From positions 7,025-71,024 of the forward strand of contig CAKVHI010000003.1 of NCBI GenBank assembly GCA_934747965.1: a stretch of 64,000 nt of DNA. The letters run 5' to 3'. Positions 19,308 to 49,932 of this stretch are shown piece after piece (position 1 is the stretch's first letter; every line of letters starts with the position of its first letter). The notes under the pieces are model-generated. The model saw only the letters and a list, made by a program, of their open reading frames with translations, had not been told where the DNA came from and searched no databases. This DNA is from an uncultured Clostridia bacterium (GTDB lineage: Bacteria > Bacillota > Clostridia > Christensenellales > UBA1242). The position numbers and the translations under genes were made by a program.

Positions 19308-19313
19308 AACATA

Positions 19314-33973: not shown

Positions 33974-34423
33974 TTAAAACTTAATATAAGGCATTGCCTT
34001 TAAATTCTTCGTAATTTTTACTGTTTTTGTTGTGTTTTTTATTTTAAGTTTGACCTCATCATCAAAAACATCCAACACAGTCGCAACTTGTTTTTTGTTG
34101 TCAACAAAAATTTCAATTTCTTTGCCTAAAAACCTTTCAAAATCTCGCTTAACCAAAATAGGTCTGTCTAGCCCCAAACTAGAAACATTAAGACTATAAC
34201 TTAAATCACAGGTAGGATTAAGTTCATCTAATGGTTCATCCAAGGCCTTAGAAACAGTTTTGCAGTCGTCAAAAGTTATTCCTTTATCGTTGTAGATAAC
34301 AATAGTAATATAGCGTTCGCCTTCCACTTCTTCATACTTTGCTTCAACAAATTCATAACCCAAATTTTCAACAATAGGTTTGCAAAGATTTGAAACATCC
34401 TCTATTATTTTTTGTTTGTTCAT
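33974..34423 (-). CDS. rimP: Ribosome maturation factor RimP
   Basis: 149 aa; GYEFVEAKYEEVEGERYITIVI..., just upstream of nusA. Confidence 0.9.
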   Translation of the reverse strand: MNKQKIIEDVSNLCKPIVENLGYEFVEAKYEEVEGERYITIVIYNDKGITFDDCKTVSKALDEPLDELNPTCDLSYSLNVSSLGLDRPILVKRDFERFLGKEIEIFVDNKKQVATVLDVFDDEVKLKIKNTTKTVKITKNLKAMPYIKF

Positions 34424-34441
34424 AACCTTCCTTTTTAATAA

Positions 34442-34470
34442 TTAGGAGCGGACTTTTTTGCCCACTCCTA
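34442..34470 (-). promoter_or_regulatory. GC-rich leader hairpin in the rimP-nusA-infB 5'UTR (possible attenuator)
   Basis: Minus strand TAGGAGTGGGC-AAAAAAG-TCCGCTCCTA followed by ATTATT. It lies between the promoter and the rimP SD. Confidence 0.45.
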
Positions 34471-34483
34471 ACTTAGTAATAGT

Positions 34484-34512
34484 ATTTTAACACACTTAAA
34501 AAATTTTTGCAA
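34484..34512 (-). promoter_or_regulatory. Promoter TTGCAA-N17-(TGt)TAAAAT for the rimP operon
   Basis: Hexamers read on the minus strand. Confidence 0.6.
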
Positions 34513-34517
34513 CAATT

Positions 34518-36026
34518 TTAATAAAATTTTTCAACTAATTTTATAAAAACTTTTGCTGTCGCTAAAGCATCATTTATCGCCCTATGTGCATTAATTAATG
34601 GAACATTCAAGGCTTCAGAAATTGTTTTTAATTTATAATTTCTTAAAAAGATGTGTTTTTTTGCAATATTTAGTGTATCCTCCATTTTGTTAGAAAAAAC
34701 ATAATCTATTCGTCTTGAATAATAATCAATAAATCCAAAGTCGAATTGAATATTCTGCCCAACCAAAATGGCATTTTTTGTGAATTTATAAAAATCAGGA
34801 AGTATATCTTCAAGTTGAGGAGCATCTTTAACCATTTCATCAGTTATGCCTGTAATTCTTGTTATTTCTTTGCTGATTTTTTGCATAGGATTTACAAATC
34901 CCGAAAAAGTTTCAACAATTCTTCCATTTTTAATTTTAACAGCACCAATTTCGGTAACTTTATTGGTTTTGTAATCAAGCCCTGTTGTTTCAAGGTCAAA
35001 CACAACAAATTCGTTATTCTGTAAATATTCTTTTTGTACAAAATTATCAAATAAATTTGCTTGGTTAATTTCAACATATTCGGTTGGATGAATAAAGCGA
35101 TAATCATTATATTCCCTGTTTATTTCTTTTTTTGGCTTTTCATATTCACATATTTCACATTTTGCAATAGATTTTATCTTAAAACTTAAATTATTATTAA
35201 AATTATCCAAACTACCTTGCATTATTATGTCAATTCCATTAACTATAGTTTTTGCAATTTCCAAATTTTTCTTTGATGGAAAAAAACTAGCATTAAAAAC
35301 TTTGTCTAAACATTTAACTATCAAAGCATACCTAATCCCCTTTGTCTGTCCATCCTTTTTTGTAAATTCAATTTCTTCGATTTTTTCAAGGTGTCCACAC
35401 AAACAGATATTTTCTTCAGGATTTTTATAATACTCAAATGGATAGCAACTAGTATCTTGAATTTCACCAATAATGTTTTCAACTTTGTTTACCTTCATTT
35501 TGTTAATCAAAATAGGTTCTAGCAAATTGTTTAAAATTTCGTTTTTATGCTCATCAAGATTTTTTTGCTCACACTCAATAATGTTGGTTGAAATTTCAAA
35601 ATTATAAAAATATAGACTGTTTAAATATTCTAATATTTTCTGTTTAATAGTCTGAGTTTCACTTTCAGTCAGAGCAAGAGAAAGACTAATATAAAACGAG
35701 TTGTCAGTTTGTTTTGAGTTTATTTCTTTCAAACTGTAGTAGCACGCAACAAAATGAGATTTTAAATAATTTTTAATCATGCTGTTTAATCTTTCTTCAT
35801 CCAAAAAAGCCTTAATAATCTTAATGTTATAATTTATATCAAGATTTCCCACATATTTTTTAACTAAATTTTCAATAACATCTTTCTTGCTTAAAAAATC
35901 ATCATAATTTAATTCTTCACACAAAAAAGTTAGATTAAGTTGATTTTTGCTTTTTTCAAAAACAACTTCGCCTAACTTTAAATTATTAACATCATTATTT
36001 TTTAAATAATCAAGAATTTTTTCCAT
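34518..36026 (-). CDS. PolC-like N-terminal/OB domain fused to a DEDDh 3'-5' exonuclease (no PHP or polymerase domains)
   Basis: The C-terminal 170 aa carry FVVFDLETTGL, GQNIQFDFGF and HRAINDALATAKVF. The upstream 330 aa resemble the PolC NTD and OB fold. The gene sits in the polC slot between rseP and rimP. Confidence 0.7.
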   Translation of the reverse strand: MEKILDYLKNNDVNNLKLGEVVFEKSKNQLNLTFLCEELNYDDFLSKKDVIENLVKKYVGNLDINYNIKIIKAFLDEERLNSMIKNYLKSHFVACYYSLKEINSKQTDNSFYISLSLALTESETQTIKQKILEYLNSLYFYNFEISTNIIECEQKNLDEHKNEILNNLLEPILINKMKVNKVENIIGEIQDTSCYPFEYYKNPEENICLCGHLEKIEEIEFTKKDGQTKGIRYALIVKCLDKVFNASFFPSKKNLEIAKTIVNGIDIIMQGSLDNFNNNLSFKIKSIAKCEICEYEKPKKEINREYNDYRFIHPTEYVEINQANLFDNFVQKEYLQNNEFVVFDLETTGLDYKTNKVTEIGAVKIKNGRIVETFSGFVNPMQKISKEITRITGITDEMVKDAPQLEDILPDFYKFTKNAILVGQNIQFDFGFIDYYSRRIDYVFSNKMEDTLNIAKKHIFLRNYKLKTISEALNVPLINAHRAINDALATAKVFIKLVEKFY

Positions 36027-36073
36027 AGTTAAAACTAAAAGATATTTTAATATGCTTTAAAAAATTTGTCAAG

Positions 36074-37090
36074 TTAAAATATTAAGTGATACAAATCAGC
36101 TATAATTACAATAGCAAACAAAACAATAAGCCCTATGGTATGAATACGATTTTCAACCTTCTGATTGATTGGTTTTCCTCTTATCCATTCAACTGTCGTG
36201 AACACCATTTTAGACCCGTCAAGAGCCGGAATTGGAAGCCAATTAAATATTGCAAGGTTTGTTGACAATAGTGGTAATAACACCAAAATATTACTTGCCC
36301 CCTGCATAGACAAGGTTGCCATCGTTTTGATTGTGGTTATTGGTCCACCCAAATTTGAGAGTGCCAATCTTCCCGTTAACAAATGCCAGAACAAAACTAA
36401 AATTTGCCACCCCAGAACAAAAGTAAAAGGAATACACTTTAAAAGTGCTTCGCCAAAACTATATGGAACACTTGTCATATTTATGCCAACTTTAACACTT
36501 TTGTCTGTATCTTCAAAAAATTTAAGATTAATATCTTGTGTTTCACCATTTCTTACAACAGTGATAGTCGCAGTTTCACCAGCCTTATATTTTAAAAGTA
36601 AATCTGTAAAATTATTTCCGTTAATAAAACTTATTTTTGTTCCCTCAACATGAGTGATAATGTCGCCGACCAACAATTCATCTTGTCTTTGACCATTAAT
36701 TTCAACTATATTTGTAATTTTTGGAATATCATATCCAACACTTACAAGCAAAATAAACGAAAATATAATCGCGCTTAAAAAATTAAAAAATGCCCCAAAA
36801 AACAAAACAATCAACCGTTTCCAAGGTTTTTGTTTCATAAAACTTGTTTCTGTTTCTTTATCTGATTCTTCCCCGTCAAAAGCACAATATCCCCCAAGAG
36901 GCACGCACCTTATAGAGAATTTTTCCCCATTTTTTTTGTTTGTTTTAGAAAACAGCGCAGGACCAAAACCAATCGAAAATTCATTAATTTTAAATCCTAA
37001 CATCTTTCCTGCAGTGTAATGACCAAATTCGTGAATTGTTACCATAAAAAGCAAAATCACTATTGCTAAAAGAATATATAAAACTATCAA
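36074..37090 (-). CDS. rseP: RIP metalloprotease RseP/RasP (site-2 protease)
   Basis: HEFGHY zinc motif, a PDZ domain and a C-terminal NWLPIPALDG. TTG 37090 behind SD AAAGGAG is preferred over the ORF-track start 37123. Confidence 0.9.
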   Translation of the reverse strand: MIVLYILLAIVILLFMVTIHEFGHYTAGKMLGFKINEFSIGFGPALFSKTNKKNGEKFSIRCVPLGGYCAFDGEESDKETETSFMKQKPWKRLIVLFFGAFFNFLSAIIFSFILLVSVGYDIPKITNIVEINGQRQDELLVGDIITHVEGTKISFINGNNFTDLLLKYKAGETATITVVRNGETQDINLKFFEDTDKSVKVGINMTSVPYSFGEALLKCIPFTFVLGWQILVLFWHLLTGRLALSNLGGPITTIKTMATLSMQGASNILVLLPLLSTNLAIFNWLPIPALDGSKMVFTTVEWIRGKPINQKVENRIHTIGLIVLFAIVIIADLYHLIF

Positions 37091-37172
37091 ATTTACTCCT
37101 TTATAATCTAAACAATTTAACAAATTTAAATTTTTAAATAAAATTTATTTTCAATATTAATTATATTCCTTT

Positions 37173-38108
37173 TTAAAAAATAAATAACAAGAAAAATAAC
37201 AAAGTAAAGAAAACTGAAAAACTTATACCGTCAAGTCTATCCATAAATCCGCCATGCCCAGGGAAAATTGATGAATAGTCTTTTGTGCGTGCTTTTCTTT
37301 TTATGATAGAAGCACAAATATCGCCTATTTCACTTAAAATAGAGGCTAAGATTGTGTATATAACAATTATATATGCTGGAAGCATAGCCTCTAAAAGCCC
37401 GCAAGCAACAAAAATTCCATAAATTCCAAAGCCAAATATAATTCCACCCAAAATGCCACCAACAGCCCCACTTATTGTTTTGTTAGGACTAATTAATGGG
37501 CAAAGTTTTGGACCCTTAATTAAACTTCCAACAAAATAAGCAAAAGTGTCTGTTGCGACTGTGGTCAAAATTGGAAGAAGCAATAAAAACAATCCAAAAT
37601 CAACTTGTCCAAAACGAGAAATATTTAAATATTCAAAATTAGCAATATTGTTTATAAAAAACATACTTGAAAGCAAAAGTGCAGGATAAAGCATTATAAA
37701 TCCAGTAAGCAACACTTTGTTTGTGCAAAATTCAACAAATGTTTTTGTTAATTTTGTTTTTTCAAACTCAGTTTTAAGTTTGTTTTTAGTTAAAAAAACA
37801 ACTAACATTTCAACAAGCATTAAAAGAACAATAATTGCCAAAAACATAAGCAAAATAAACCAAATATTAAGTTTATATTTCATACCCAAAAAGAACGCAC
37901 AATAGCATAAAATTGGATAAATTGTGATTAATGTTCCGTTATTAAGTCTGCCACTTCGATTAAAAACCCTTGAAACTTCATTTGCTGACACAATAATAAC
38001 CAAACACAACAAAGCATCAAAAATATATGTGCTAACAAATTGCCTAAGCACAAAAACTAACGCAACAACAATATTCAATATAATCGCTGTTATAACTCTT
38101 TGTTTCAT
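37173..38108 (-). CDS. cdsA: Phosphatidate cytidylyltransferase
   Basis: Polytopic; signature SIIKRKARTKDYSSIFPGHGGFMDRLD. Start at MKQRV behind SD GAGGAG. Confidence 0.9.
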   Translation of the reverse strand: MKQRVITAIILNIVVALVFVLRQFVSTYIFDALLCLVIIVSANEVSRVFNRSGRLNNGTLITIYPILCYCAFFLGMKYKLNIWFILLMFLAIIVLLMLVEMLVVFLTKNKLKTEFEKTKLTKTFVEFCTNKVLLTGFIMLYPALLLSSMFFINNIANFEYLNISRFGQVDFGLFLLLLPILTTVATDTFAYFVGSLIKGPKLCPLISPNKTISGAVGGILGGIIFGFGIYGIFVACGLLEAMLPAYIIVIYTILASILSEIGDICASIIKRKARTKDYSSIFPGHGGFMDRLDGISFSVFFTLLFFLLFIF

Positions 38109-38115
38109 ATTCTCC

Positions 38116-38805
38116 TCACGCTTTCCCAAAACGCCTTTCTCGTTTGTTATAATCTTTTAAAGCCTTTGTTAAAGTCTTTTTATCAAAATCTGGCCATAAA
38201 GTTTTTGTAAAATAAAGTTCAGCATAAGCCAAATCATAAAGCATAAAATTTGACAATCTTTCTTCGCCACTTGTTCTGATAACAAAATCTAAATCTGGCA
38301 AATCTTTGGTGTAAAGCAAGTGCTTAAAACTTTCTTCATCTACCCTTTCAATTCCAAGTTTTATGGCGTTATTGCAAGCATTTATAATATCTTGCCTACC
38401 ACCATAATTAAGGCACATATTAACAATCATTCTATTATTATTTTTTGTTTTTTCAATGCATTTAGCCAAACTTTTTTGTAAATTTTCTGGAAGCCTAGAC
38501 AAATCTCCGCTTATCACCAATCTAATGTTTTTATCATTAAATTCATCAAGGTCAGATTTAATGTAATCATCCAAAAGTTCAAAAATGTTGTCTATTTCCT
38601 CTTTATCTCGCTTGAAATTTTCAGTTGAAAACACAAAAAAAGAACAAAATTTTATGCCAAAATCTAAGCAAGCATTAATTGTTTTCTTAACTGCCTTAAC
38701 ACCTTCATTGTGCCCAAATTTTCTTGGAAGCAACCGCCTTTTTGCCCACCTTCCGTTGCCATCAATTATAAAGCCAATATGATAAGGTAATTTGTTTATT
38801 TTCAT
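38116..38805 (-). CDS. uppS: Undecaprenyl diphosphate synthase
   Basis: HIGFIIDGNGRWA, FSTENFKR and IRTSGEERLSNFMLYDLAYAELYF. Confidence 0.95.
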   Translation of the reverse strand: MKINKLPYHIGFIIDGNGRWAKRRLLPRKFGHNEGVKAVKKTINACLDFGIKFCSFFVFSTENFKRDKEEIDNIFELLDDYIKSDLDEFNDKNIRLVISGDLSRLPENLQKSLAKCIEKTKNNNRMIVNMCLNYGGRQDIINACNNAIKLGIERVDEESFKHLLYTKDLPDLDFVIRTSGEERLSNFMLYDLAYAELYFTKTLWPDFDKKTLTKALKDYNKRERRFGKA

Positions 38806-38812
38806 AATCCCC

Positions 38813-39001
38813 CTAAACTTCTAATTTGAATTTATCAAAATATAAAATCAATTTATTGTTTATATATTCAAATTTAACCAAAAGTTGTGTATCAAAAAAC
38901 TTGTTTTCATCAAATTCCACAATATCATATTCAACTTTTTCTTCATTTAAAAGTTTCAAAACTTCATTTTTTGGATATCCAATAAAATTTTCAATTTTCA
39001 T
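38813..39001 (-). CDS. Small hypothetical protein (62 aa) coupled between frr and uppS
   Basis: TAATG overlap with the frr stop. PASTA-like beta-alpha pattern (IGYPKNEVLKLLNEEKVEYDIVE). Confidence 0.45.
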   Translation of the reverse strand: MKIENFIGYPKNEVLKLLNEEKVEYDIVEFDENKFFDTQLLVKFEYINNKLILYFDKFKLEV

Positions 39002-39564
39002 TAAATTTCCATAATTTCCTTTTCTTTGTCTTGCGAAATTTTGTCAATTTTTGCAATATAATCATCCAATATTTTTTGCACTTCTTTTTCGCTCAATTTT
39101 TCGCCATCTTCAGTAATTAAATTATCTTTTTTAAGTTGTTTTACATTATCAAGAGCAACTCTTCTTTCATTTCTTGCACTAACTTTAACTTCTTCAGCAA
39201 TCTTTTTTGTTTGTTTAACAAGTTCTTTTCTTCTTTCTTCCGTCAAAACCGGAAAAACAAGCCTAATAACTTTGCCATCATCATTAGGATTTATCCCAAT
39301 ATTTGCCTCATTAATTGCTTTAACAACTTCTTTAATCATACTGGTGTCCCAAAGAGAAATTAAAAGCATTCGTGGCTCAGGAACAGAAATATTAGCCATT
39401 TGATAAAGAGGAGTTGGTGTTCCGTAGTAATCTACCAAAACTTTATCTAATATCTTCGGATTTGCTCTTCCCGCCCTTACAGAAGAAAATTCAACATTTA
39501 AGTGGTTGATAACTTTTTCTAAATTTTGTTTAAGTTCATCATAAACTTCTTTTTGTGTTGTCAT
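39001..39564 (-). CDS. frr: Ribosome recycling factor
   Basis: 187 aa; FSSVRAGRANPKILD...VDYYG and TEERRKELVK. Confidence 0.97.
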   Translation of the reverse strand: MTTQKEVYDELKQNLEKVINHLNVEFSSVRAGRANPKILDKVLVDYYGTPTPLYQMANISVPEPRMLLISLWDTSMIKEVVKAINEANIGINPNDDGKVIRLVFPVLTEERRKELVKQTKKIAEEVKVSARNERRVALDNVKQLKKDNLITEDGEKLSEKEVQKILDDYIAKIDKISQDKEKEIMEI

Positions 39565-39711
39565 AAAATACTCCTTTAAAGTTTGTGAATAGTATTTTCA
39601 CAAAATATACAAGAATATAATACTAAATTTAAAGCAAAAATGCAAATAAAAAATAACTATTAAATTTTATTTTTTGTAAAAAAACTAAAAATTTAACAAT
39701 TAAAAAAACTA

Positions 39712-39740
39712 TTGAAATTTTTTACTATATGTGATATTAT
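39712..39740 (+). promoter_or_regulatory. Promoter TTGAAA-N17-(TGa)TATTAT for the plus-strand two-gene cassette
   Basis: Hexamers read directly. SD AAGAGGTG precedes the ATG at 39762. Confidence 0.6.
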
Positions 39741-39761
39741 ATAATTATATAAGAGGTGCTT

Positions 39762-40388
39762 ATGATTAAACAAGTTGAAATTTGCGACAAATGTGCCAAA
39801 TGCGGATATGAGCAAAATTTTTTTGTTGTTGAAGGAATTGATTTTGAAAATTTTGAAACTAACAAATTAATTGATTTTTCAACATACTCTGCCTTCAAAA
39901 ATCCTTGCTTAAATGTGTGTGAAAATTGCGGATACATCAATTTTGACCTAACCGAAAACTTAGAGAAATTTGCCACTTTCAACAAAGATAACACAAAATA
40001 TAATGACGGAGTTATTGGGATTGATGCAATTTTTCAGCAATATGTTGAAAAAGCTCCGTTTACATTAAAATCTATTCAAGCCTTGGCAAAAATTTTTACA
40101 TTACAAAAATTTTCTTACAATTCATTTGTAAGCAAAAACTTCAGAAAAAAAACTGAATATTTTGACAAAATGATTTCTCTTCACAATCAACTTATTTCAC
40201 AAATAAGCTATGCCTGTGAAATTTATTTGCAGTTAAACAAAAATAATTTTGTTAGTTGTTTTTATGTTGAGATTTTGGCTGATTTAGGAAAAAAAGACCA
40301 AGCAACTTCAATTTTAAATTCTTTACCTTTAAAGGATGACCTTAAAGACTATTTGCTTGAATGTATTGAAATTGGAGGTAATGAATAA
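39762..40388 (+). CDS. Zinc-ribbon protein with a helical (TPR-like) C-terminus, DUF2225-like
   Basis: Two CxxC pairs (CDKCAKCG ... CENCGY) about 45 aa apart, then a helical region. TAATG overlap with the following PHP gene. Confidence 0.55.
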   Translation: MIKQVEICDKCAKCGYEQNFFVVEGIDFENFETNKLIDFSTYSAFKNPCLNVCENCGYINFDLTENLEKFATFNKDNTKYNDGVIGIDAIFQQYVEKAPFTLKSIQALAKIFTLQKFSYNSFVSKNFRKKTEYFDKMISLHNQLISQISYACEIYLQLNKNNFVSCFYVEILADLGKKDQATSILNSLPLKDDLKDYLLECIEIGGNE

Positions 40389-42106
40389 TGCTTCAATTTT
40401 ATAACCGAATTCTTCCAAAATGTGGGTTTGTTGACCTCCACAATCACACAAACGACAGTTATGGCGAAGAAATGAATCAAATGAATATCACGCCTGAGGA
40501 ATTGCTTGAAAGTGCTTATGAATACACCAAGCAAACATCTTCTGATGTCACTTTTGCAATAACCGACCACAACAGCATAGAAGGTGTGCAAAAAGTTGAT
40601 TTACTTTTGAAAAGCAATCCAAAAAAATACGACAAAATAAACTTTATATCTGGCTGTGAATTTACATGCAGTGCCGGAAGTTTGGGCGAAATAACAAATG
40701 ATGAAGGACACATTAAAAACATATATTCAAACTTTCATATGCTTGCGTATGGTTTTAATGCTTTTGATGAAACACTTTCCTTTTTATGCAAACTTCATTC
40801 AACAAAAAGAGCAAATTCAGTATTAGTGAAAACCGATAAAGCCACAATTAAAATTTCTGCTGGTGCTTATGTTTTGTCTATAAAGAACATTTTAAAAGAC
40901 TACGGAATTATACTTTCACTTGAAGATTTCAAAGATGTTAACCTTAAAACAGACAATATCGATGAAAAAACTTATATTAACTATTTAATGACATACATTG
41001 AAAAATTCAAACTTGAAGAAATGGTAAAAAAAGACATTTTCTATCAACTTTGCAATCGTAACATCATAAGTTTGGGTCGCCTAGATTGTTTGGAAGTTAT
41101 GGAAGTTGTTGAATCTGCTGGTGGCGTGTGTGTTTTGGCTCATCCTTTTTTAATTAGACTTGGGACTTTTGCAAAAGACAATGAAAAAAAGACAATGGCT
41201 TTATTGAAAAGAAAACTAAAAAAAATTGGTGAAAAGTTTAATGATGATGATAATGTATATATTCTTTCCTTAAAATATATTGTTAGCAAATTAAGCAAAC
41301 ACGCCCATTCTCTTGATAATAACAAACGACTAAAAGGTATTGTTGGAATAGAAAATTTGCATTTTTCGTCTACCCTTCATTCAAATTTTTTTGAAAGAGT
41401 TAATAACATTGCAAAAGAAAATAATCTTTACATTACTTGCGGAAGTGATTCTCATGGTTCGCTAAAAGCACCGAATATGCTTTCTATGTTTACTGCGAAA
41501 TCTGAATTAACAAACAATGTTAAAAATGACATAGTTGCTAAAAACTGTTTATTTGCTGAAAAACTGCTTGACGGTTCTATAAAAAACGATCTAAAATGTA
41601 ACAAAAGTTTTGATGAGCAAATAACACTTGTTCAAAATCAAAACAATAAAGACAATGTAATTAAATTACAAGACTATTGTAATTTAATTATCAACACAAG
41701 TGTTGATAGACCCCACACTAGTAAAAAACAGAATCATGAAAATAAAGAGAAAAATATAGAATTTTCAAAAGTTATATATAACGGCAAAACAAACATCAAC
41801 ACGGCAATCTTTCTTATCACAAGAGCAATAGACAAAAGTAGCACAGACAAAAGTATCCTTGCAAAAGAATTTAAAAATATTAAGGCTCTTGTGCCTTCAA
41901 TCAATTTAGCACTTGAAACGATAAGCAAAAATAAAGAAGATTTGAAAGATAAAAAGTATGTAATAAACTTTTTGAAACTATATCAAAATTACTTGAAAGT
42001 AAGAAAAAAATATAAACTATGCCTAAAATCAGCTCAAGATGAGTATAAACAAGAAAAGAAGAAAATTAGACTAGATAAACATAACAAAGATGAAAAAACC
42101 TTATAG
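40388..42106 (+). CDS. PHP-domain phosphoesterase (TrpH/RNase AM-like core) with an insertion and a ~200-aa Lys/Asn-rich helical tail
   Basis: All PHP metal motifs are present: DLHNHT, ITDHN, GCEF, FHMLAYG, LAHP and GSDSHG. Confidence 0.7.
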   Translation: MLQFYNRILPKCGFVDLHNHTNDSYGEEMNQMNITPEELLESAYEYTKQTSSDVTFAITDHNSIEGVQKVDLLLKSNPKKYDKINFISGCEFTCSAGSLGEITNDEGHIKNIYSNFHMLAYGFNAFDETLSFLCKLHSTKRANSVLVKTDKATIKISAGAYVLSIKNILKDYGIILSLEDFKDVNLKTDNIDEKTYINYLMTYIEKFKLEEMVKKDIFYQLCNRNIISLGRLDCLEVMEVVESAGGVCVLAHPFLIRLGTFAKDNEKKTMALLKRKLKKIGEKFNDDDNVYILSLKYIVSKLSKHAHSLDNNKRLKGIVGIENLHFSSTLHSNFFERVNNIAKENNLYITCGSDSHGSLKAPNMLSMFTAKSELTNNVKNDIVAKNCLFAEKLLDGSIKNDLKCNKSFDEQITLVQNQNNKDNVIKLQDYCNLIINTSVDRPHTSKKQNHENKEKNIEFSKVIYNGKTNINTAIFLITRAIDKSSTDKSILAKEFKNIKALVPSINLALETISKNKEDLKDKKYVINFLKLYQNYLKVRKKYKLCLKSAQDEYKQEKKKIRLDKHNKDEKTL

Positions 42107-42125
42107 ATCTTATAAGGTTTTTTTA
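42094..42125 (+). terminator. Terminator of the cassette (the hairpin includes the stop codon)
   Basis: AAAACCTTATA-GATC-TTATAAGGTTTT + T7. Confidence 0.75.
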
Positions 42126-42148
42126 AATTTAAAGCGTTATGTTTAAAT

Positions 42149-42178
42149 AAAAAATGATATATGAATTTCATATATCAC
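42149..42178 (-). terminator. tsf terminator
   Basis: Minus strand GTGATATATGA-AAT-TCATATATCA + T6. Confidence 0.75.
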
Positions 42179-42186
42179 TTTCAAAA

Positions 42187-43071
42187 TTATTCATGTTTGC
42201 CCATTTTTGCAACTTCTTCAGCAAAGTTTTCGTTTTTCTTCTCTAAACCTTCGCCCATTTCAAAACGAACAAATCTTGAAATTGTAAAGTTGTTTCCAAC
42301 AACTTCTTCAATAGTTTTAGAATCATCTTTAACAAAAAGTTGATTTAACAAGCAATTTTCTGTATAGAATTTTCCAATTTTACCCATAACAATTTTTTCC
42401 AAAATTTCTTTTGGTTTGTTGGCATTTTTTTCATCATTTTGCATTTGAGCAAGCAAAATTTCTTTTTCTTTATCAAGTTCTTCAGCTGGCACTTCATTTT
42501 TGTTTAAATAAGTTGGTTTTGCTGCTGCAATTTGAAGAGCAACATCATGAAGGATATCTTCCCCACCGTTAAATGGATTAGCATCAACCATAACACCAAC
42601 TTTTCCACCCATGTGAATATAAGTTTCAATTTTGCCTGCAGTTTCAAACAAAGCGAATCTTCTGATTGAAAGTTTTTCGCCAATAACCATAGTTTGTTCT
42701 GTCATATATTCGCTAACTGACATACCATTAATTTCGCAAGAATTTAATGCTTCAACATTTTCTGGTTTATTTTTGATAATACATTCAGCAATATCGCTAA
42801 CTATTGCTTGAAATTTTTCGCCTTTAGAAACGAAATCTGATTCACAGTTAATTTCAACCAAAGCGCCGATATTTCCGCAAACTTTTGCACCAACGGCACC
42901 TTCTGCAGCAATACGACTTGCCTTTTTAGCAGCCTTTGCAACGCCTTTTTCACGCAAAACTTCAATGGCTTTATCAAAATCGCCATTAGTTTCAGTTAAA
43001 GCATTTTTGCAATCAAGCATACCTGCACCAGTCATTTCTCTTAAATTTTTTACATCACTTGCTGTAAACAT
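42187..43071 (-). CDS. tsf: Elongation factor Ts
   Basis: ASDVKNLREMTGAGMLDCKNAL UBA-like N-terminus. Start at MFTASD behind SD GGAGG. Confidence 0.97.
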   Translation of the reverse strand: MFTASDVKNLREMTGAGMLDCKNALTETNGDFDKAIEVLREKGVAKAAKKASRIAAEGAVGAKVCGNIGALVEINCESDFVSKGEKFQAIVSDIAECIIKNKPENVEALNSCEINGMSVSEYMTEQTMVIGEKLSIRRFALFETAGKIETYIHMGGKVGVMVDANPFNGGEDILHDVALQIAAAKPTYLNKNEVPAEELDKEKEILLAQMQNDEKNANKPKEILEKIVMGKIGKFYTENCLLNQLFVKDDSKTIEEVVGNNFTISRFVRFEMGEGLEKKNENFAEEVAKMGKHE

Positions 43072-43083
43072 AGTTTCCTCCAA

Positions 43084-43902
43084 TTATTCTTTATCTGTTT
43101 TTTCTTCAACTTTTTCTTCTGCTTTTGCTTCAGTTTCAGCAAATGCTTTTTCAATATCATCAATAGCTTTTTCGCTTGACTTTTCGCCATCTTCTTCTGG
43201 AAGTTCAACAGTTAATTGAACACCTTCTTTTGCTTCAATAACAGCGTTAGCCATAGCAGCAGCAATCAATTTTACAGAACGAATAGCATCATCGTTGCCC
43301 GGAATAACATGAGTTATGTTTTCAGGATCGCAGTTTGTGTCAATCAAACCTACAGTAGGAATACCTAAAGTTTTTGCTTCTTTAACGCAAATATGTTCTT
43401 TTTTAGAGTCAACAACAAAAATAACGCCAGGAAGTTTAGTCATTTCTTTAATACCGCCAAGGTTCTTTTCAAGTTTATCTCTTTCAGCTTTAAGTTTGAT
43501 AACTTCTTTTTTAGGAAGAAGGTCAAATTCCCCTGTTTTTTCCATTTGGTTTAATTTGTTTAATCTTTCAATACTCTTTTTAACAGTTTTGAAATTTGTT
43601 AAAGTACCACCAAGCCAACGAGTGTTAATGTAATACATTCCACATCTTTCAGCTTCTTCTTTAATGGCATCTTGAGCTTGTTTTTTTGTTCCAACAAACA
43701 AAACAGTTTTGCCTTCGTTAACACTTTCTTTAATAAAATCATAGGCTTTGTCAACTAAGTCTAGGGTTTGCTCTAAGTCAATAATATGAATATCTTTACG
43801 AGCAGTGAAGATATACTTATCCATTTTTGGATTCCATTTTCTAGTTTGGTGACCAAAATGTACACCAGCTTCTAGAAGTTGTTTCATAGAAACAGCACTC
43901 AT
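43084..43902 (-). CDS. rpsB: 30S ribosomal protein S2 with an acidic C-terminal extension
   Basis: [22 protein letters not shown]. Start at MSAVSMKQ behind SD AAAGGAGAA. The ORF-track start at 44061 is an over-extension. Confidence 0.97.
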
Positions 43903-44094
43903 TTTTAATTCTCCTTTAAATTTTGTTTTAGTCTTCCTAAGTGTTTTAAAACTCTGCAAGCCACCAAGATTTGGCAACGACTTAACAAATTTACACTTAG
44001 TGCGAATTTTGACCATATAAAATATACCATAACAAAAAAAAATTTGCAAGAATTTTAGCAAACTTTTTTATTAACTTTATAAATTTTTGTCATT

Positions 44095-44423
44095 CTACTT
44101 AGTTTTCATATTTTTTATAATATTCAAAACACTTTCCTTTGACTCTTCACTCATGTTTTTTATTAGAGTATATAATTCATTATCTTTTTCATAAGTTTGA
44201 TAATTATTAGAAAAAAATTGTTCTTTAGAGATACCAAATTCATTTATCATTTTATAAACAACTGTTATTGGCATAACAAACCCTTTTGATTTATATAACT
44301 TGAGTGTTTATTCAATCTTAAGCTTAATTCTCTTGCACTAAGTTTTAATTTATTTCTAAAATAATATTCACGCAATGCAATATCTTTAATTATTTCTAAA
44401 TCTTCTTTTTCTTCTAAGTTCAT
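44095..44423 (-). pseudogene. Frameshifted XRE-family helix-turn-helix regulator
   Basis: My own translation gives MNLEEKEDLEIIKDIALREYYFRNKLKLSARELSLRLNKHSSYINQKG, which stops at 44265. The +1 frame continues FVMPITVVYKMINEFGISKEQFF...MKTK*. The break falls inside the HTH at an A4G3 run. Total length is 329 nt, not a multiple of 3. Confidence 0.6.
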
Positions 44424-44551
44424 AAAACCATCCTATAATTTTTTATTATAAAAAACTCCAAACTAAGCTCGGCAAAAAAGCCAAGATAGAAATGAATGGT
44501 TGTTCATGACTATTTTGGTGCGCTTTAAAAACTCTTTATTGCGAAGTTTTT

Positions 44552-44866
44552 TTACTCACTCATAAGTTTGTCGTATTCAGAGAAAACTATATCGATTATA
44601 TCTTCATCTTCTTCAGGATCAAGCAAATTCAACAACTCTTCACCTTCAGGTGTTTCTTCAAGTTCAAAAACAAGGGCTTCATTTTCGCCTACGCCTTCCA
44701 TTTCTTTCACTGGTTTTAAAATTGCATAAACTTGTTCTTTAACAGGAATGACAGCAATTTGTTCAAATTCAATTTCTTTTTCATTTTCATCAATCAAAAT
44801 AATGTTTGAATCATCATTTTCATCAAGCAGATGTTCAAAAACACTTTTTTCTTCTTTTTCTTCCAT
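44552..44866 (-). CDS. DUF1292 family acidic protein
   Basis: 104 aa and highly acidic; EIEFEQIAVIPVKEQVYAILKPV core. Follows ruvX, as in other Firmicutes. Confidence 0.8.
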   Translation of the reverse strand: MEEKEEKSVFEHLLDENDDSNIILIDENEKEIEFEQIAVIPVKEQVYAILKPVKEMEGVGENEALVFELEETPEGEELLNLLDPEEDEDIIDIVFSEYDKLMSE

Positions 44867-44898
44867 ACTAATCTCCTTTAAATAAATAATCCAAAATT

Positions 44899-45306
44899 TT
44901 ATTTTGAATCAAGATAGGTTTGCAAAATTATGCTGGCGGACACTTGGTCTAAAAGTTTTTTACGCTGTTTCCAATCTTTTATTGTAAGTTTTAATTGTTC
45001 TTCAGCTTCGACACTAGATAATCTTTCATCAACAAAAACGATTTTCACACCCGAAAAATTTTTAAGTTTTTCAGCAAATTCTTCAACCAATTTACAGGTT
45101 TCCCCTTTGCTTCCACTCATTTCAAACGGATAACCAATAACAACGGTTTCAACCTTAAATTCTTTTATAATTTTATCCAAAAACTCAAAGTCTTCTTTTT
45201 CAGTTGTTCTTGTGAGTGTGCTGTAAGGCGAAGCCAAAAAACCCATAATATCCGAAAGTGCAATTCCAATTCTAGCCTTTCCAAAGTCTAGCCCCATAAT
45301 TTTCAT
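44899..45306 (-). CDS. ruvX: Holliday junction resolvase-like nuclease RuvX/YqgF
   Basis: IMGLDFGKARIGIALSD...VVIGYP...DERLSSVEAE. Confidence 0.92.
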   Translation of the reverse strand: MKIMGLDFGKARIGIALSDIMGFLASPYSTLTRTTEKEDFEFLDKIIKEFKVETVVIGYPFEMSGSKGETCKLVEEFAEKLKNFSGVKIVFVDERLSSVEAEEQLKLTIKDWKQRKKLLDQVSASIILQTYLDSK

Positions 45307-45472
45307 AGAAAAACCTCTATTAACATTTTAACAAAATAAAAAAAATTAAACAAACAATTTAGCAAATTTTATGTTCAAATTTAATTTATTTTTACAAAAC
45401 ACCATTCAATGCCAAATTTTTCCTTAATATTTGATAATATTTTGCAAACAATAATAGTAGGAGGAAATAATT

Positions 45473-45607
45473 ATGAAAGAATGTTTTACATTTGGTTTAG
45501 CAATGGGAATGCTTGTTGGCGCAGTGATTGTTCACATGAGCCCAAAAGCACAACAAATTATGGATAAAGGCGAAAAATGCTTGAAAGAGAAAGTAAATAA
45601 CCTTTAA
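45473..45607 (+). CDS. Small membrane protein (44 aa)
   Basis: Not in the ORF track because it is shorter than 60 aa. Strong SD AGGAGG lies 7 nt upstream. Sequence MKECFTFGLAMGMLVGAVIVHMSPKAQQIMDKGEKCLKEKVNNL, followed by a terminator. Confidence 0.55.
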   Translation: MKECFTFGLAMGMLVGAVIVHMSPKAQQIMDKGEKCLKEKVNNL

Positions 45608-45609
45608 TT

Positions 45610-45642
45610 AAAAAAGCCAAGAAAACTTTTCTTGGTCTTTTT
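45610..45642. terminator. Bidirectional terminator shared by the small ORF and the iscU-like gene
   Basis: A6-GCCAAGAAAA-C-TTTTCTTGGT-CT5. Confidence 0.75.
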
Positions 45643-45643
45643 A

Positions 45644-46024
45644 TTATTGAGCAGATTTTAACTTCTCAAGTTTTTTATAATAATCTTTAATTGCTTCATG
45701 AATTGCCTTTTCTGCCAAAATGCCACAATAAAATTTATATTCTGGAAGTTCACCCATATCTTTCAAAATTTGATCAAAAGTGATTTTTAATGCATCTTCA
45801 ACTTTCTTGCCTTTTATTTTATCACAAGCATAATCACTAGACACAATAGTTACAACACCACCCAAAGTTTTGAATTTAGCATCCATAATAATGCCGTCTT
45901 CAACTTTAAGATAAATTCTTATAATATCGCCATTTTGCGAAGCCTCACCAACCCCGCTGGCATTTTTAATTAAGCCAACATTTTTGAGATTAAGAAATCT
46001 TGTCATAATAATTTTGTTATACAT
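45644..46024 (-). CDS. IscU/NifU-like scaffold homologue lacking two of three cluster cysteines
   Basis: Aligns to IscU throughout (NVG...GD..R.YLKVEDGII.DAKFKT.G..., ...YCGILAEKAIHEAIKDY), but has SQNGD in place of ACGD and LGGVV in place of YGCGS. Confidence 0.8.
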   Translation of the reverse strand: MYNKIIMTRFLNLKNVGLIKNASGVGEASQNGDIIRIYLKVEDGIIMDAKFKTLGGVVTIVSSDYACDKIKGKKVEDALKITFDQILKDMGELPEYKFYCGILAEKAIHEAIKDYYKKLEKLKSAQ

Positions 46025-47202
46025 TATTTCTTACCCCCTTTAAGTTGAATTGGCGAAATAGCTCTTAATTTTTCTATAATTTTTACCAATTTTTCAACAA
46101 CGAAGTCCATATCTTCTTTGGTGTTAGATTTTAAAATCGAAAATCTGATAGATCCGTTATTAAGTTCACTTGGAACACCCATAGCCTCAAGCACATGACT
46201 TGGTTCCAACGACCCACTAGTGCAAGCTGAGCCTGTTGAAGCACAAATTCCTTCCAAGTCAAGCATTGCTAACAAACTTTCTTTTTCAACACATTCAAAA
46301 CTTAGATTTAAAATATGTGGAAGTCTTTGATGAGGATGACCATTAAACTTAACGCCTGCAATTTTTGAACAAATTTCATTTTGAAGATAATCTCTTAAGC
46401 CCTTAAGTTTTGTGTTAACTGCGTGCATATCTCTGTTTGCAATTTCTGCAGCCTTTCCAAAGCCGACAATCGCTGGTGTGTTTAAAGTACCACCTCGTTT
46501 GCCTCGTTCTTGATTTCCACCAATTATAAGGTTATCAATTTTAGTCCCTTTTTTAACATACAAACATCCTGCACCTTTGGGACCATAAATTTTATGACTA
46601 GAAATTGTTAAAGCATCAATACCTATTTCTTCAACATTAATGTTTATGTGAGAATATGCTTGAACACAATCAGTATGAAAAATTATACCCTCTTTTTCAT
46701 GACAAGTTTGAGCGATTGCTTTTAAATGTTCAATAGTTCCAACTTCATTATTTGCTGCTTGAATAGAAACCAAAATAGTTTCATCACAAATATAATGCAT
46801 TAAATCGGCAAGTTTAACAATACCTGTTTCATCAACATCTAAATATGTAACCCTAAAACCTTCTTTTTCAAGTTGCTTACAAGCCTCTAATATGCTGTGA
46901 TGCTCAATTTTTGAAGTGATAATATGATTACCTTTACTTGAATTTGCATAAGCTAGACCTCTTATTGCCCAGTTATTAGCTTCTGTTCCACCAGATGTAA
47001 AATAAATTTCATTAGGTTTTGCATTAATAGTTTTTGCAATTCTTTCCCTAGACTCATCAACCTTTGCGTTTGCATATTGACCCATTGCATGCAAACTTGA
47101 TGGATTTGCAAAATTAGCATTAAACATTGGCATCATTTCAGACAACACTTCACTGTTTACATAAGTTGTTGCTGCCGAATCTAAATAAACTTTTCTTTCC
47201 AT
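46024..47202 (-). CDS. nifS: Cysteine desulfurase NifS/IscS
   Basis: SSHKIYGPKGAG PLP lysine and the STGSACTSGSLEPSHVL active-site loop. Confidence 0.95.
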   Translation of the reverse strand: MERKVYLDSAATTYVNSEVLSEMMPMFNANFANPSSLHAMGQYANAKVDESRERIAKTINAKPNEIYFTSGGTEANNWAIRGLAYANSSKGNHIITSKIEHHSILEACKQLEKEGFRVTYLDVDETGIVKLADLMHYICDETILVSIQAANNEVGTIEHLKAIAQTCHEKEGIIFHTDCVQAYSHININVEEIGIDALTISSHKIYGPKGAGCLYVKKGTKIDNLIIGGNQERGKRGGTLNTPAIVGFGKAAEIANRDMHAVNTKLKGLRDYLQNEICSKIAGVKFNGHPHQRLPHILNLSFECVEKESLLAMLDLEGICASTGSACTSGSLEPSHVLEAMGVPSELNNGSIRFSILKSNTKEDMDFVVEKLVKIIEKLRAISPIQLKGGKK

Positions 47203-47294
47203 AATAACTCCTAATAAAATGCTATCACTTTAGCCAAAATTTGTCAATACTCAATTTTAATTTTTAATGAAATTAAAGACAATTTTTTGACAAT

Positions 47295-47609
47295 TTAGTT
47301 TTTAACCATATCAACGATAAAATCTTTGTTTTTAAGACCTATTGCTCTTTTAACTTCTTTCCCGTCTTTAAACAAAATTAATGTTGGAACACTCATAACA
47401 CCATAACTTTTTGCAAGGTCAAAACTTTCATCAATATCAACTTTACAAATTTGCTCGTTTTCAAGTTCATTATTAACTTCTTCTAGTATTGGCGCTAACA
47501 TTTTACAAGGTCCACACCAAGAAGCATAAAAATCAACCAAAACTGTTCCGCCTTGCTCCATAACAATATCATTAAATTCTTCAATACCTATATGTTTAAT
47601 TTCTTTCAT
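47295..47609 (-). CDS. trxA: Thioredoxin
   Basis: WCGPCK active site; 104 aa. Confidence 0.95.
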   Translation of the reverse strand: MKEIKHIGIEEFNDIVMEQGGTVLVDFYASWCGPCKMLAPILEEVNNELENEQICKVDIDESFDLAKSYGVMSVPTLILFKDGKEVKRAIGLKNKDFIVDMVKN

Positions 47610-47752
47610 AAATAACTCCTTTTAACATAAATTTATAATCTATTTTACCCATTTAATAAATTTTTATTGTAGATAATTTTTGAATAAAAATAATTTAAAA
47701 TGCATAATTATACAAGCCTATTAAAATTTGATAAACAAATATTTACTCAATT

Positions 47753-48436
47753 TTAGTTGTTTATTATATCATTAATAACAAAACTAGCAATAGTAATTCC
47801 GCACAAAGCAACATTATAACTTATAGAAAACACTTTAGTTTTGTCCGTGGTGTTATCACTTGCACTGTCGGTTGAGCAAACAGTTAAATTTTTTATCCCC
47901 AATTTTCTAAGTTCAAGCCTTAGTTTCCGAGCCAAAGCATTGTTTTGAGTTTTGTATATATCCAAAATTTTGAATGTAGTTGACTTATACCTGTTTCCTG
48001 CACCCATTGATGAAATTATGTTAATATTATTTTTTTTACAATATTCAATTAAAGCAAGTTTGTCTTTAAAACTGTCTATACAATCAATAACATAATCATA
48101 TTGAGAAAGGTAAAAATCATCCAAATTCTCTTTACAAACCCTTTCTGTTGAAATATGCAAATTTATGCATGGATTAATATCCAAAATACGGTCTTTAAAA
48201 GCACTCACTTTAAAATGTCCAACATTAGAATTAGTTGCGATAATTTGTCTGTTAATATTGCTGTCATTAATTTTATCAAAATCAATAATTGTTAGATTAT
48301 TCACCCCGCTTCTAACAAGCATTTCAACAACATAGCCACCAACTCCACCAACACCAAAAACTATAATTTTTTTGCTCTGAATTTTGTCAAAATTATTGCT
48401 GCCTATCAAATTAATTGTCCGCTCAAATGCACTCAT
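47753..48436 (-). CDS. tcdA: tRNA threonylcarbamoyladenosine dehydratase (ThiF/E1-like)
   Basis: VFGVGGVGGYVVEMLVRSGV...IDFDKINDSNINRQ. Confidence 0.85.
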   Translation of the reverse strand: MSAFERTINLIGSNNFDKIQSKKIIVFGVGGVGGYVVEMLVRSGVNNLTIIDFDKINDSNINRQIIATNSNVGHFKVSAFKDRILDINPCINLHISTERVCKENLDDFYLSQYDYVIDCIDSFKDKLALIEYCKKNNINIISSMGAGNRYKSTTFKILDIYKTQNNALARKLRLELRKLGIKNLTVCSTDSASDNTTDKTKVFSISYNVALCGITIASFVINDIINN

Positions 48437-48442
48437 ATAATT

Positions 48443-48471
48443 ATTATATCAATTTATAACTAGCAAGTCAA
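48443..48471 (-). promoter_or_regulatory. Consensus promoter TTGACT-N17-(TGa)TATAAT ending 6 nt before the tcdA ATG
   Basis: Hexamers read on the minus strand. No SD. Confidence 0.6.
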
Positions 48472-48481
48472 ATGCTATAAA

Positions 48482-48512
48482 AAAATCCTAAACAAATTGT
48501 TTAAGATTTTTT
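48482..48512 (-). terminator. hslU terminator
   Basis: AATCTTAAACAA-TTT-GTTTAGGATT + T7, on the minus strand. Confidence 0.7.
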
Positions 48513-48614
48513 ATTACTTAAAAATCATGTATAAATGAAAAGAAAATGTTTTAAATATTTTTTGTGGTTTTGTTTGCGTAAGTTAAATCTACCACTTAAT
48601 TAGTTTTAAAAAAT

Positions 48615-49922
48615 TTATAGAATAAATTTATTCAAGTCAAATTTTTTGATAGTAGAATCAAATGTTTTGTCAACATAAGCCTTGTCAATAACCATTTTAA
48701 ACGGCTCAAAACTTCCGTCAGCATTAAAACTTATGTCCTCAATAAGTTTTTCAATAATCGTGTGAAGTCTTCTTGCACCAATATTTTCACTTGTTTCATT
48801 TTCATGCTCAGAAATCAAAGCAATTTCTTCAATAGCATCTTGCGTAAATTCAAGTTCAATGTTATCGACCTTTAAAAGTTCTTCATATTGCATCGTTATT
48901 GCATTCTTAGGCTCAGTTAAAATCTTAACAAAGTCTTCTTTTGTTAAGTTCGTAAGTTCAACTCTAATCGGAAATCTTCCTTGAAGTTCAGGAATAAGAT
49001 TTTCTACCGCTGCAATGTGGAAAGCACCCGCTGCAATAAACAAAATATAATCGGTTTTTATTGTTCCATATTTGGTTGTAACCGAACAACCTTCAACAAA
49101 AGGAAGAATATCTCTTTGAACACCTTCGCGAGAAACATCTTGACTGTTAGAGCTACCTTTAACGGCTATTTTGTCGATTTCATCAATAAAGATTATTCCT
49201 TCTTGTTCGGCTCTTTTTATGGCTTCGGCATTTACGCTTTCCATATCGATAAGTTTAGAGCTTTCTTCATCCAAAAGTTCTTTTTTTGCTTGTTTAACTG
49301 TCATTTTACGCTTTTTTCTTGCTCCACCCGGCATCATATTAGAAAAAATATCCCCAAGATTAATTTCATTTGCACTGGCGATTGATATTTCCATTGCTTG
49401 AGGTTTAACTTGAACATCAAGTTCTATTGTTTCATCGTCATAATCACCATTTTCTAATGCTTTTTTAATACGGTCTTTATCTTCATCTATCAAAGCATTA
49501 GGGTCTTTTTTTATTGGATAAACAATATTAAAAAGTTTACTCAAAACACTAGGCATGGCTTTTTCTTTCACGCTTTGCATTTTTTCTTCTTTAACCATTC
49601 TGACCGAAACTTCAACCAAATCTCTAATCATGCTCTCGCAATCTCTTCCAACATACCCAACTTCAGTAAATTTTGTTGCTTCAACCTTAACAAAAGGCGC
49701 TTTAACAAGTTTTGCAAGTCTTCTTGCAATCTCTGTTTTACCAACCCCTGTTGGACCTTTCATAATAATATTTTTTGGTGTAATTTCTTCTTGAAGTTCT
49801 TGTGGAAGTTTGCTTCTTCTGTATCTGTTTCTAAGAGCCACCGCAACGGCTTTTTTGGCTTCATTTTGACCAATAATATATTTATCTAATTCATTAACAA
49901 TTTGTTTTGGACTTAAATTCAT
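48615..49922 (-). CDS. hslU: ATP-dependent protease ATPase subunit HslU
   Basis: PKNIIMKGPTGVGKTEIARRLA and IIFIDEIDKIA, with an I-domain insertion. Confidence 0.97.
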   Translation of the reverse strand: MNLSPKQIVNELDKYIIGQNEAKKAVAVALRNRYRRSKLPQELQEEITPKNIIMKGPTGVGKTEIARRLAKLVKAPFVKVEATKFTEVGYVGRDCESMIRDLVEVSVRMVKEEKMQSVKEKAMPSVLSKLFNIVYPIKKDPNALIDEDKDRIKKALENGDYDDETIELDVQVKPQAMEISIASANEINLGDIFSNMMPGGARKKRKMTVKQAKKELLDEESSKLIDMESVNAEAIKRAEQEGIIFIDEIDKIAVKGSSNSQDVSREGVQRDILPFVEGCSVTTKYGTIKTDYILFIAAGAFHIAAVENLIPELQGRFPIRVELTNLTKEDFVKILTEPKNAITMQYEELLKVDNIELEFTQDAIEEIALISEHENETSENIGARRLHTIIEKLIEDISFNADGSFEPFKMVIDKAYVDKTFDSTIKKFDLNKFIL

Positions 49923-49932
49923 AATTTTCTCC

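Follow-up and report, generated by a model that had tools for sequence, protein, structure and literature searches.

The 64,000-nt stretch analysed in this study (hereafter the window; contig CAKVHI010000003.1 of an uncultured Clostridia bacterium belonging to Christensenellales) carries a pair of genes between frr and tsf, on the strand opposite to both. The first gene encodes a 208-amino-acid (aa) protein with a predicted zinc ribbon and TPR-like helices (hereafter the partner), and the second encodes a 572-aa protein predicted to be an enlarged phosphoesterase of the TrpH/YciV (RNase AM) type (hereafter the PHP protein). Among uncultured Clostridia of the gut, a small group carries the pair in the slot between tsf and frr where pyrH is usually located. 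The association between the two genes is deep and obligate, and is conserved far beyond this genome. By analogy with known enzymes, the two proteins may form a two-subunit metal-dependent 5'-end nucleic-acid phosphoesterase or exonuclease that participates in the maturation or turnover of endogenous RNA ends, a reading to which we assign a probability of about 50%. In agreement with the original prediction, which was made from the nucleotide sequence alone, no description of this partner/PHP pairing was found in the literature.

Organization of the partner-PHP operon

The order rpsB-tsf-pyrH-frr is among the most conserved gene strings in bacteria. In the window, frr (ribosome recycling factor; 39001-39564, minus strand; Pfam RRF, 1.1e-63) on the left and tsf (EF-Ts; 42187-43071/43083, minus strand; Pfam EF_TS, 1.5e-64) on the right flank two genes on the plus strand, giving the arrangement frr<- ->partner-PHP <-tsf. 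The open reading frames (ORFs) of this opposite-strand unit are as they had been described, and the identity of both flanking genes was confirmed by Pfam. The start of tsf is likely to be at 43071, as in the gene calls (294 aa). The partner gene is located at 39762-40388 on the plus strand according to the ORF list and gene calls. Its ORF opens at 39756, and the start codon is ATG at 39762, because this ATG lies 5 nt past the GAGG of AAGAGGTG, the homologues begin with MIKQ, and the gene calls give a product of 208 aa. The PHP gene follows at 40388-42106 on the same strand in the ORF list. The stop codon of the former and the start codon of the latter overlap as TAATG (40386-40390, plus strand), as had been noted, and on this sequence feature the two genes are predicted to be translationally coupled.

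The absence of pyrH from the string, as claimed in the original prediction, held for the window as a whole: no match was obtained within the 64 kb by tblastn at E<=10 with an E. coli PyrH query, and a regular-expression search for pyrH motifs found nothing in the window. The same query, when applied to 17 related loci, yielded three chance-level matches only (E 2.5-7.8).

The promoter proposed for the operon at 39712-39740 (plus strand) was recovered by a consensus scan, with the -35 element TTGAAA, a 17-nt spacer and the extended -10 element TGaTATTAT (10/12 matches plus the TG). Consensus-type matches occur in this AT-rich DNA at chance frequency, being no commoner than in shuffled sequence. 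Despite this chance-level frequency the assignment is supported by conservation, because nine orthologous frr-partner spacers, divergent in other respects, align without any change in the -35 TTG.A, the TG or the -10 TA..(A)T. A second pair of conserved blocks, GCAA and TATAATACTAAAT, is kept in the nine loci and fits a divergent frr promoter detected by the promoter scan at 39617-39646 (minus strand; -35 TTTGCA/TTGCAA, -10 TATTAT). As predicted from these elements, frr is transcribed from its own divergent promoter, independently of tsf.

At the other end of the operon, folding predicted a terminator-like hairpin on both strands at 42091-42125, composed of an A-run, a core stem of 7 bp (CCTTATA/TATAAGG) and a T-run. 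The free energies of folding (dG) were -14.4 (plus) and -11.7 kcal/mol (minus), with z about -5; none of 200 shuffled sequences folded as well, and analogous hairpins were found in 8/8 related spacers. The hairpin of the terminator that had been assigned to the unit is thus real, but it is not private to the unit: because its stem is flanked by an A-run and a T-run, it is bidirectional and common to the PHP gene and the convergent tsf. An Rfam scan of the spacers of the locus found no RNA element.

Structure and conservation of the PHP protein

The PHP protein is classified, on its sequence and a structural model, as an enlarged TrpH/YciV (RNase AM)-type phosphoesterase of the PHP superfamily, and can be divided into a core (residues 1-360), an alpha/beta subdomain (361-440) and a Lys-rich helical tail (441-572). 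When its AlphaFold2 model (pLDDT, the predicted local distance difference test score, 87.8) was compared with PDB by Foldseek, the sole significant matches were RNase AM of V. cholerae (9etk, 4e-9), Cv1693 (2yb1, 4.7e-9) and the PHP domain of E. coli RNase AM (7ug9, 2e-6), all with a probability of 1.00. A profile search of PDB sequences with the PHP family matched 3e0f/3o0f and 7ug9, and hhalign against 13 ordinary TrpH proteins of ~280 aa gave a probability of 99.95% (E 5e-38) for a stretch, residues 15-359, that takes in the insertion domain. The relationship to TrpH and RNase AM that had been read from the sequence was therefore substantiated by both structure and profile comparison. Among family models, the NCBIfam entry for RNase RNM (NF047791) matched the N-terminus of the PHP protein (residues 15-95; E 7.7e-8) with a score of 31.9 bits, far under its curated cut-off of 375, and Pfam, PF02811 included, gave nothing at E<=0.1. 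A PolC-type or PolIII-type PHP identity was considered and rejected, the Foldseek match to PolIII-alpha being weak only (E 0.03). A total of 33 homologues were present in a collection of 5.8 billion proteins, and the sole name attached to any of them was 'PHP domain-containing protein [Christensenellales bacterium]'.

No variation was seen at D16, H18, H20, D60, H61, E91, H117, H252, E322 or H356 in an alignment of 28 sequences, and D354 is conserved in at least 90% of them; the set of ligands named in the original prediction is thus conserved across the family, and the PHP protein retains 8/9 of the canonical metal ligands. The stretch of ~130 aa between H117 and H252, which had been taken for an insertion, corresponds for the most part to the insertion domain of ordinary TrpH, with some 20 residues added. 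The family-specific additions relative to TrpH are instead an insert of six residues behind the HxH motif, two hairpins (~97-112 and ~141-158), a helical insert of ~45 aa at ~257-315, and, beyond residue 360, a C-terminal extension of 212 aa that is new compared with ordinary TrpH. The coiled tail of 200 aa that had been described corresponds in part to this extension: residues 441-572 (~130 aa) are indeed predicted to form three long helices rich in Lys (22% Lys; net charge, +17), but the remaining ~80 aa (residues 361-440) make up the alpha/beta subdomain, which is moderately conserved and includes the invariant Q411. The helical tail is poorly conserved and is missing from some relatives; the identity between species is 47-76% for the core versus 8-45% for the tail, divergence thus being concentrated in the extension.

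Enzymes of the RNase AM branch act as a 5'->3' exoribonuclease that matures the 5' ends of 5S, 16S and 23S rRNA (PMC7261194), hydrolyse 3'-phosphoadenosine 5'-phosphate (pAp), short 5'-phosphorylated oligonucleotides and diribonucleotides (PMC11528712), and catalyse deFADding (PMC9410882). Exoribonuclease or pAp phosphatase activity is known for the enzymes of E. coli, P. aeruginosa and C. violaceum (PMC7261194, PMC11528712). The PHP protein shares the PHP barrel and the TrpH-type helical insertion domain with RNase AM/YciV/TrpH of E. coli, V. cholerae and P. aeruginosa (7ug9, 9etk) and with Cv1693 (2yb1); the RNase AM/TrpH group gave the best structural and profile matches and has the same His, Asp and Glu metal ligands at eight of the nine positions. 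The sequence identity is, however, as low as 14-15% to the solved RNase AM structures and about 21-29% to ordinary TrpH. In size, the PHP protein of 572 aa differs from RNase AM/TrpH, which are stand-alone single subunits of about 280-300 aa, and it has both a dedicated upstream partner and the 212-aa extension, neither of which is found for ordinary TrpH. The best profile match among solved structures was BAD_1165 of Bifidobacterium adolescentis (3e0f/3o0f; 6.8e-6), a putative metal-dependent phosphoesterase, which shares the motifs HMLAY, AGG.VVAH and GGSD.HG with the PHP protein but is a single-domain protein of 301 aa without a partner or tail.

The partner protein

The partner, as predicted from its sequence and model, consists of a zinc ribbon and a TPR-like helical domain, and it represents a new family that carries no annotation. 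C11, C14, C53 and C56 are invariant in 44 sequences, while E170 and A181 are nearly invariant and fall within a TPR-like pattern (E..L...G....A) of the last helices. The AlphaFold2 model (pLDDT 85.8) shows a beta zinc ribbon (residues 1-60), a poorly predicted linker and six helices (residues 87-204), in accord with the four-Cys zinc ribbon and helical C-terminus that had been noticed at the outset. No family in Pfam, NCBIfam, PADLOC or PHROGs matched the partner. Profile searches gave weak PPR/TPR matches only (E about 0.015 for PPR), the TPR_19 match stayed under the threshold (E 0.21) with no other Pfam TPR match above it, and Foldseek against PDB and BFVD returned nothing significant, the best being 14-3-3, TPR and IFIT5 at E >= 0.14. 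The six helices superimpose weakly on TPR, IFIT and 14-3-3 repeats (for IFIT5, 4hor: TMq 0.38; root-mean-square deviation, 3.8 A; 117 columns), and proteins of the TPR, IFIT, 14-3-3 and PPR types differ from the partner in being much larger and in having no N-terminal zinc ribbon. No match to helix-turn-helix (HTH), ribbon-helix-helix (RHH) or AbrB domains was detected in the partner.

Proteins of the DUF2225 family, found in Firmicutes, have a plan like that of the partner: at a length of ~210-230 aa, they carry two CxxC knuckles separated by ~38 residues and, C-terminal to these, TPR-like helices. The identification of the partner as DUF2225-like, as proposed originally, was nonetheless abandoned, since the hidden Markov model (HMM) of this uncharacterised family (PF09986) gave no match in the protein of the window, in 11 close members at E<=10 or in 10 distant members at E<=0.01. 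The partner family and the C-terminal extension of the PHP proteins are opposite in charge, with median net charges of -6.5 and +9, respectively.

Co-occurrence and distribution of the pair

On all contigs retrieved for homologues of the PHP protein, a gene for a partner of ~200-220 aa stands directly upstream of the PHP gene, the two overlapping or lying at most 26 nt apart. The arrangement frr<- ->partner-PHP <-tsf is present in nine loci (the window, L001, L003, L007, L011, L013, L014, L015 and L017). In L005 and L006, the pair is still located beside frr, with tsf and rpsB elsewhere. The related loci retrieved through the PHP homologue share the placement on the frr side, their Frr proteins being 79-98% identical, and the pair is present in 6/6 strain-level contigs that carry an identical Frr and reach upstream. 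The pair is thus conserved at this position across the clade, and this conservation comes without the known housekeeping annotation with which the original prediction had linked it. No second copy of the pair was seen in the window or within the flanks of ±6-10 kb of the related loci.

When 1.84 billion representatives were searched exhaustively with an HMM of the partner family, no more than 40 clusters (at 50% identity) were obtained, and the distant members measured 220-237 aa. Four distant relatives of the partner (about 20% identity) were looked up, and all four have a PHP protein of the same extended subfamily encoded directly downstream, as judged by hmmsearch against A1 (P0059 in L055, E 6e-107; P0066 in L058, E 7e-74; P0058 in L059, E 3e-43; P0060 in L056, E 1e-25). 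The same order, partner and then PHP, was observed in L009, L010 and L060. Altogether, six contigs with distant partner or PHP relatives showed this order in 6/6 cases and in five unrelated contexts, including Ku-LigD, asnA, rplJ and XRE regulators with FAD oxidoreductases; co-occurrence elsewhere, which had been put forward as a check, was thus found in all the distant relatives examined. No ~200-aa partner of the same type was present beside ordinary ~280-aa TrpH genes in 37 loci or genomes examined. Among the species representatives of GTDB, at least four close relatives were found, all of them in metagenome-assembled genomes (MAGs) of gut 'Catabacter', 'Christensenella' or Clostridia. Scans of metagenomes and GTDB with the PHP profile added, among generic TrpH, at least four loci of the family in one case and at least one in the other, the phyletic breadth thereby remaining under-sampled.

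Some of the distant contexts are described here in more concrete terms. In L055 (1747-7156), Ku and three LigD genes (phosphoesterase/ligase, and then primase-polymerase) immediately precede the module on the same strand. Of the contigs recovered by searching for PHP homologues, L009 and L010 are the most distant. Directly upstream of the module, L009 (815-1322) has a divergent and a co-directional XRE-type HTH gene (65-68 aa), and L010 (728-1235) has a divergent 68-aa HTH gene and a 47-aa ORF without a Pfam match; the HTH genes of both contigs match generic HTH models of PADLOC (capH, control-protein and RmrA). In L018 (7620-9563) and L048 (7622-8861), both MAGs of the deltaproteobacterial type, an ORF of 120 aa with two CxxC motifs is located directly before a TrpH-like PHP gene (520 aa in L018), which may represent an independent or very remote pairing of a zinc ribbon with PHP.

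Inheritance and selection

The pair is functional, chromosomally fixed and vertically inherited, because mobile or defence signals are lacking, the slot is constant, the pair is present at the strain level, and the ratio of nonsynonymous to synonymous polymorphism (pN/pS) is about 0.1. Homologues of either protein were found on none of 50,697 phage records, 72,556 plasmids and 2.9 million IMG/VR contigs. Neither PADLOC-DB v2 (5027 models) nor PHROGs matched the pair or its distant family members. In the loci examined, no integrase, transposase or defence gene was located beside the pair, and the neighbours were housekeeping genes; presence/absence variation at the strain level was not seen among the six contigs with identical Frr. 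The GC content of the pair is 29.1% compared with 29.7% for the locus, and the sign change of GC skew across the pair follows the coding strand only. Horizontal insertion was rejected on these grounds, no compositional island being detectable in GC or GC skew.

Within the species, pN/pS was 0.10 for the PHP gene (34 synonymous and 14 nonsynonymous changes) and 0.08 for the partner gene (6 and 2), as compared with 0.12 for uppS and 0.04 for cdsA, all these estimates being crude owing to small counts and non-independent samples. Diversifying selection within the species was likewise discarded as an explanation, since even a crude pN/pS of about 0.1 argues otherwise. These results altogether speak against the suggestion, made in the original prediction, that a defence or toxin-type module has been placed within a core operon, given the fixed slot, the GC content of the host, the lack of links to PADLOC, PHROGs or mobile elements and the purifying selection. 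The housekeeping role in RNA processing, which had been called equally possible, is now better supported than the defence reading.

Proposed role of the pair and alternatives

A role in the processing or turnover of endogenous RNA is favoured because of the one stable locus, the promoter of constitutive type, the purifying selection and the lack of mobile or defence signals. Transcription of the operon would start at a sigma-A-type promoter of its own, which stands back-to-back with that of frr, and would end at the terminator common to tsf. By analogy with RNase AM, the PHP subunit would remove nucleotides or phosphates from 5'-phosphorylated ends of RNA or oligonucleotides, using the chemistry of a 5'->3' exonuclease, a nanoRNase or a pAp phosphatase. 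The fast-evolving basic helical tail would hold a polyanionic substrate such as RNA or ribosomal particles, or would mediate assembly, and the acidic partner with its zinc ribbon and TPR-like helices would be a stoichiometric subunit that binds the enzyme and gates, targets or restrains it. Complex formation, the substrate and the physiological role are what we infer here from the genomic and structural comparisons described above.

Several observations weigh against this proposal. The position of the Asp in the TrpH motif 'SDG' is occupied in the PHP protein by Tyr25 (SYG), and by Tyr or Phe throughout the family, so that the third metal site, and hence the chemistry, may differ from that of TrpH. 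The 6-residue insert after the HxH motif carries an invariant Glu, E28, which, judging from the alignment, might be a candidate stand-in for the missing Asp. The Arg pair that binds the substrate in RNase AM is not strictly conserved in the PHP family. The mechanistic steps rest on analogy with proteins that are about 14-25% identical, and adjacency to translation genes is weak evidence of function. The pair also outpaces all of its 18 syntenic neighbours (33974-50469) in divergence, with 29-37% identity for the partner and 39-57% for the PHP protein, compared with 44-98% for the neighbours; in L015, for instance, the identity is 98% for Frr, 96% for RpsB, 89% for Tsf and 56-95% for the other neighbours, but 57% for the PHP protein and 37% for the partner. 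Moreover, the family is rare, and its occurrence over Clostridia is patchy and in contexts unrelated to one another, an unusual pattern for genes with housekeeping functions.

The rapid divergence and the patchy distribution lead to the first alternative, a conflict system for anti-phage defence or of the toxin-antitoxin (TA) kind, in which the partner would sense an invader or neutralise the nuclease, and the PHP protein would be an effector breaking down nucleic acids or nucleotide signals, the system as a whole having become fixed beside frr. The tight coupling of a sensor-like repeat protein with a nuclease-type effector is in favour of such a system, as are the partner being the fastest-evolving gene of the neighbourhood, with the tail of the PHP protein evolving fast too, and the rarity of the family together with its variable contexts in distant lineages. 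The XRE-type HTH genes immediately upstream in L009 and L010 are a common feature of regulated defence or TA modules, and an acidic partner facing a basic enzyme tail could fit an inhibitor. Catalogued defence systems, however, lie in variable islands or on mobile elements, in contrast to the fixed slot of the pair in nine loci, which has stayed constant over species-to-genus divergence with no strain-level presence/absence. Type II TA systems have a small DNA-binding antitoxin and are multicopy and mobile; the upstream protein of the pair has 208 aa and no detected DNA-binding fold, which is atypical of a type II antitoxin, and the pair has no mobile association. The negative searches of PADLOC (5027 models), PHROGs, phages, plasmids and IMG/VR contigs, the lack of integrase, transposase or defence genes alongside, the host-like GC content and the purifying within-species pN/pS of about 0.1 all point in the same direction, and we regard a conflict system as unlikely, though as the strongest of the competing explanations.

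The second alternative starts from the active site. The altered 'SDG' ligand suggests a changed active site, and the closest solved relatives, 2yb1 and 3e0f/3o0f, are nucleotide phosphoesterases with bound AMP or phosphate. Cv1693 and BAD_1165 were reportedly first described as small-molecule nucleotide phosphatases, and NCBIfam gave a weak match of the PHP protein, below the curated cut-off, to 3',5'-nucleoside bisphosphate phosphatase (1.1e-5). The PHP protein could accordingly be a phosphatase for small molecules, e.g., 3',5'-pAp, nucleotides of the cyclic or bisphosphorylated type or another phosphoester, and the partner would control it allosterically. For such an enzyme, a 212-aa extension that includes a Lys-rich tail of +17 and a dedicated partner are hard to explain, and this possibility is considered improbable. 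Rather doubtful in the same degree is a more speculative form of the nuclease model, namely, a two-part surveillance nuclease for 5' ends, in which an IFIT-like sensor of zinc ribbon and TPR would gate an RNase AM-type exonuclease for immune or toxic action or for RNA quality control, and which would have been hard-wired in the place of pyrH.

Least probable is the processing or repair of DNA ends, in which the PHP protein would clean 3'-phosphates or damaged ends or have exonuclease activity, in the manner of the bacterial PolX PHP domain, with the partner recognising the ends: DNA exonuclease or phosphoesterase functions are known for the PHP domains of PolX and Pol III, PolIII-alpha appeared as the weak Foldseek match noted above, and the L055 module follows the Ku and LigD genes, but repair neighbours were found in only 1/6 contexts, the best relatives in fold and sequence are RNase AM/TrpH and not PolX, and the partner is acidic, unlike a DNA binder.

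Other features of the window

Several features outside the operon were recorded. A full-length OLE (ornate large extremophilic) RNA was identified at 18773-19319 on the minus strand (RF01071, 332 bits, E 6.5e-94) as the sole Rfam match in the window, and no tRNA gene was found within the 64 kb. Upstream of rpsB, two overlapping ORFs of 59 and 52 aa (44095-44423, minus strand) together resemble one XRE-type HTH gene, and at the equivalent place L015 has an intact XRE-type HTH gene of 118 aa (12762-13118); the split ORFs are probably a frameshifted pseudogene or an assembly error.

A 62-aa ORF at 38813-39001 (minus strand) overlaps the stop codon of frr and is located between frr and uppS in most of the related loci, with 50-74% identity. 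It was called as a gene in several assemblies and belongs to no Pfam family. Between rseP and rimP, at 34518-36026 (minus strand), a 502-aa protein with a C-terminal DnaQ/RNase_T exonuclease domain is encoded, with 59-77% identity within the clade; in Firmicutes this interval usually holds proS-polC.

Implications

The kind of enzyme represented by the PHP protein is known; what is new is that the enzyme is enlarged, that a ligand motif is altered, that a partner from a family without annotation is obligatory and that the pyrH slot is occupied. To our knowledge, E. coli has no known 5'->3' exoribonucleases other than PHP enzymes of the RNase AM type, which have so far been studied as stand-alone proteins in Proteobacteria. 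In this Firmicute branch, an enzyme of the RNase AM type appears to have doubled in size and gained an obligatory partner, which offers a handle on how such chemistry is targeted or regulated. The locus is also a clean case in which the rpsB-tsf-pyrH-frr string was broken and refilled by a lineage-specific operon, in abundant uncultured Clostridia of the gut. Should the partner act as a sensor or an inhibitor, the pair would constitute a new nuclease system subject to regulation; otherwise, it would add an RNA-maturation factor to a poorly known clade.

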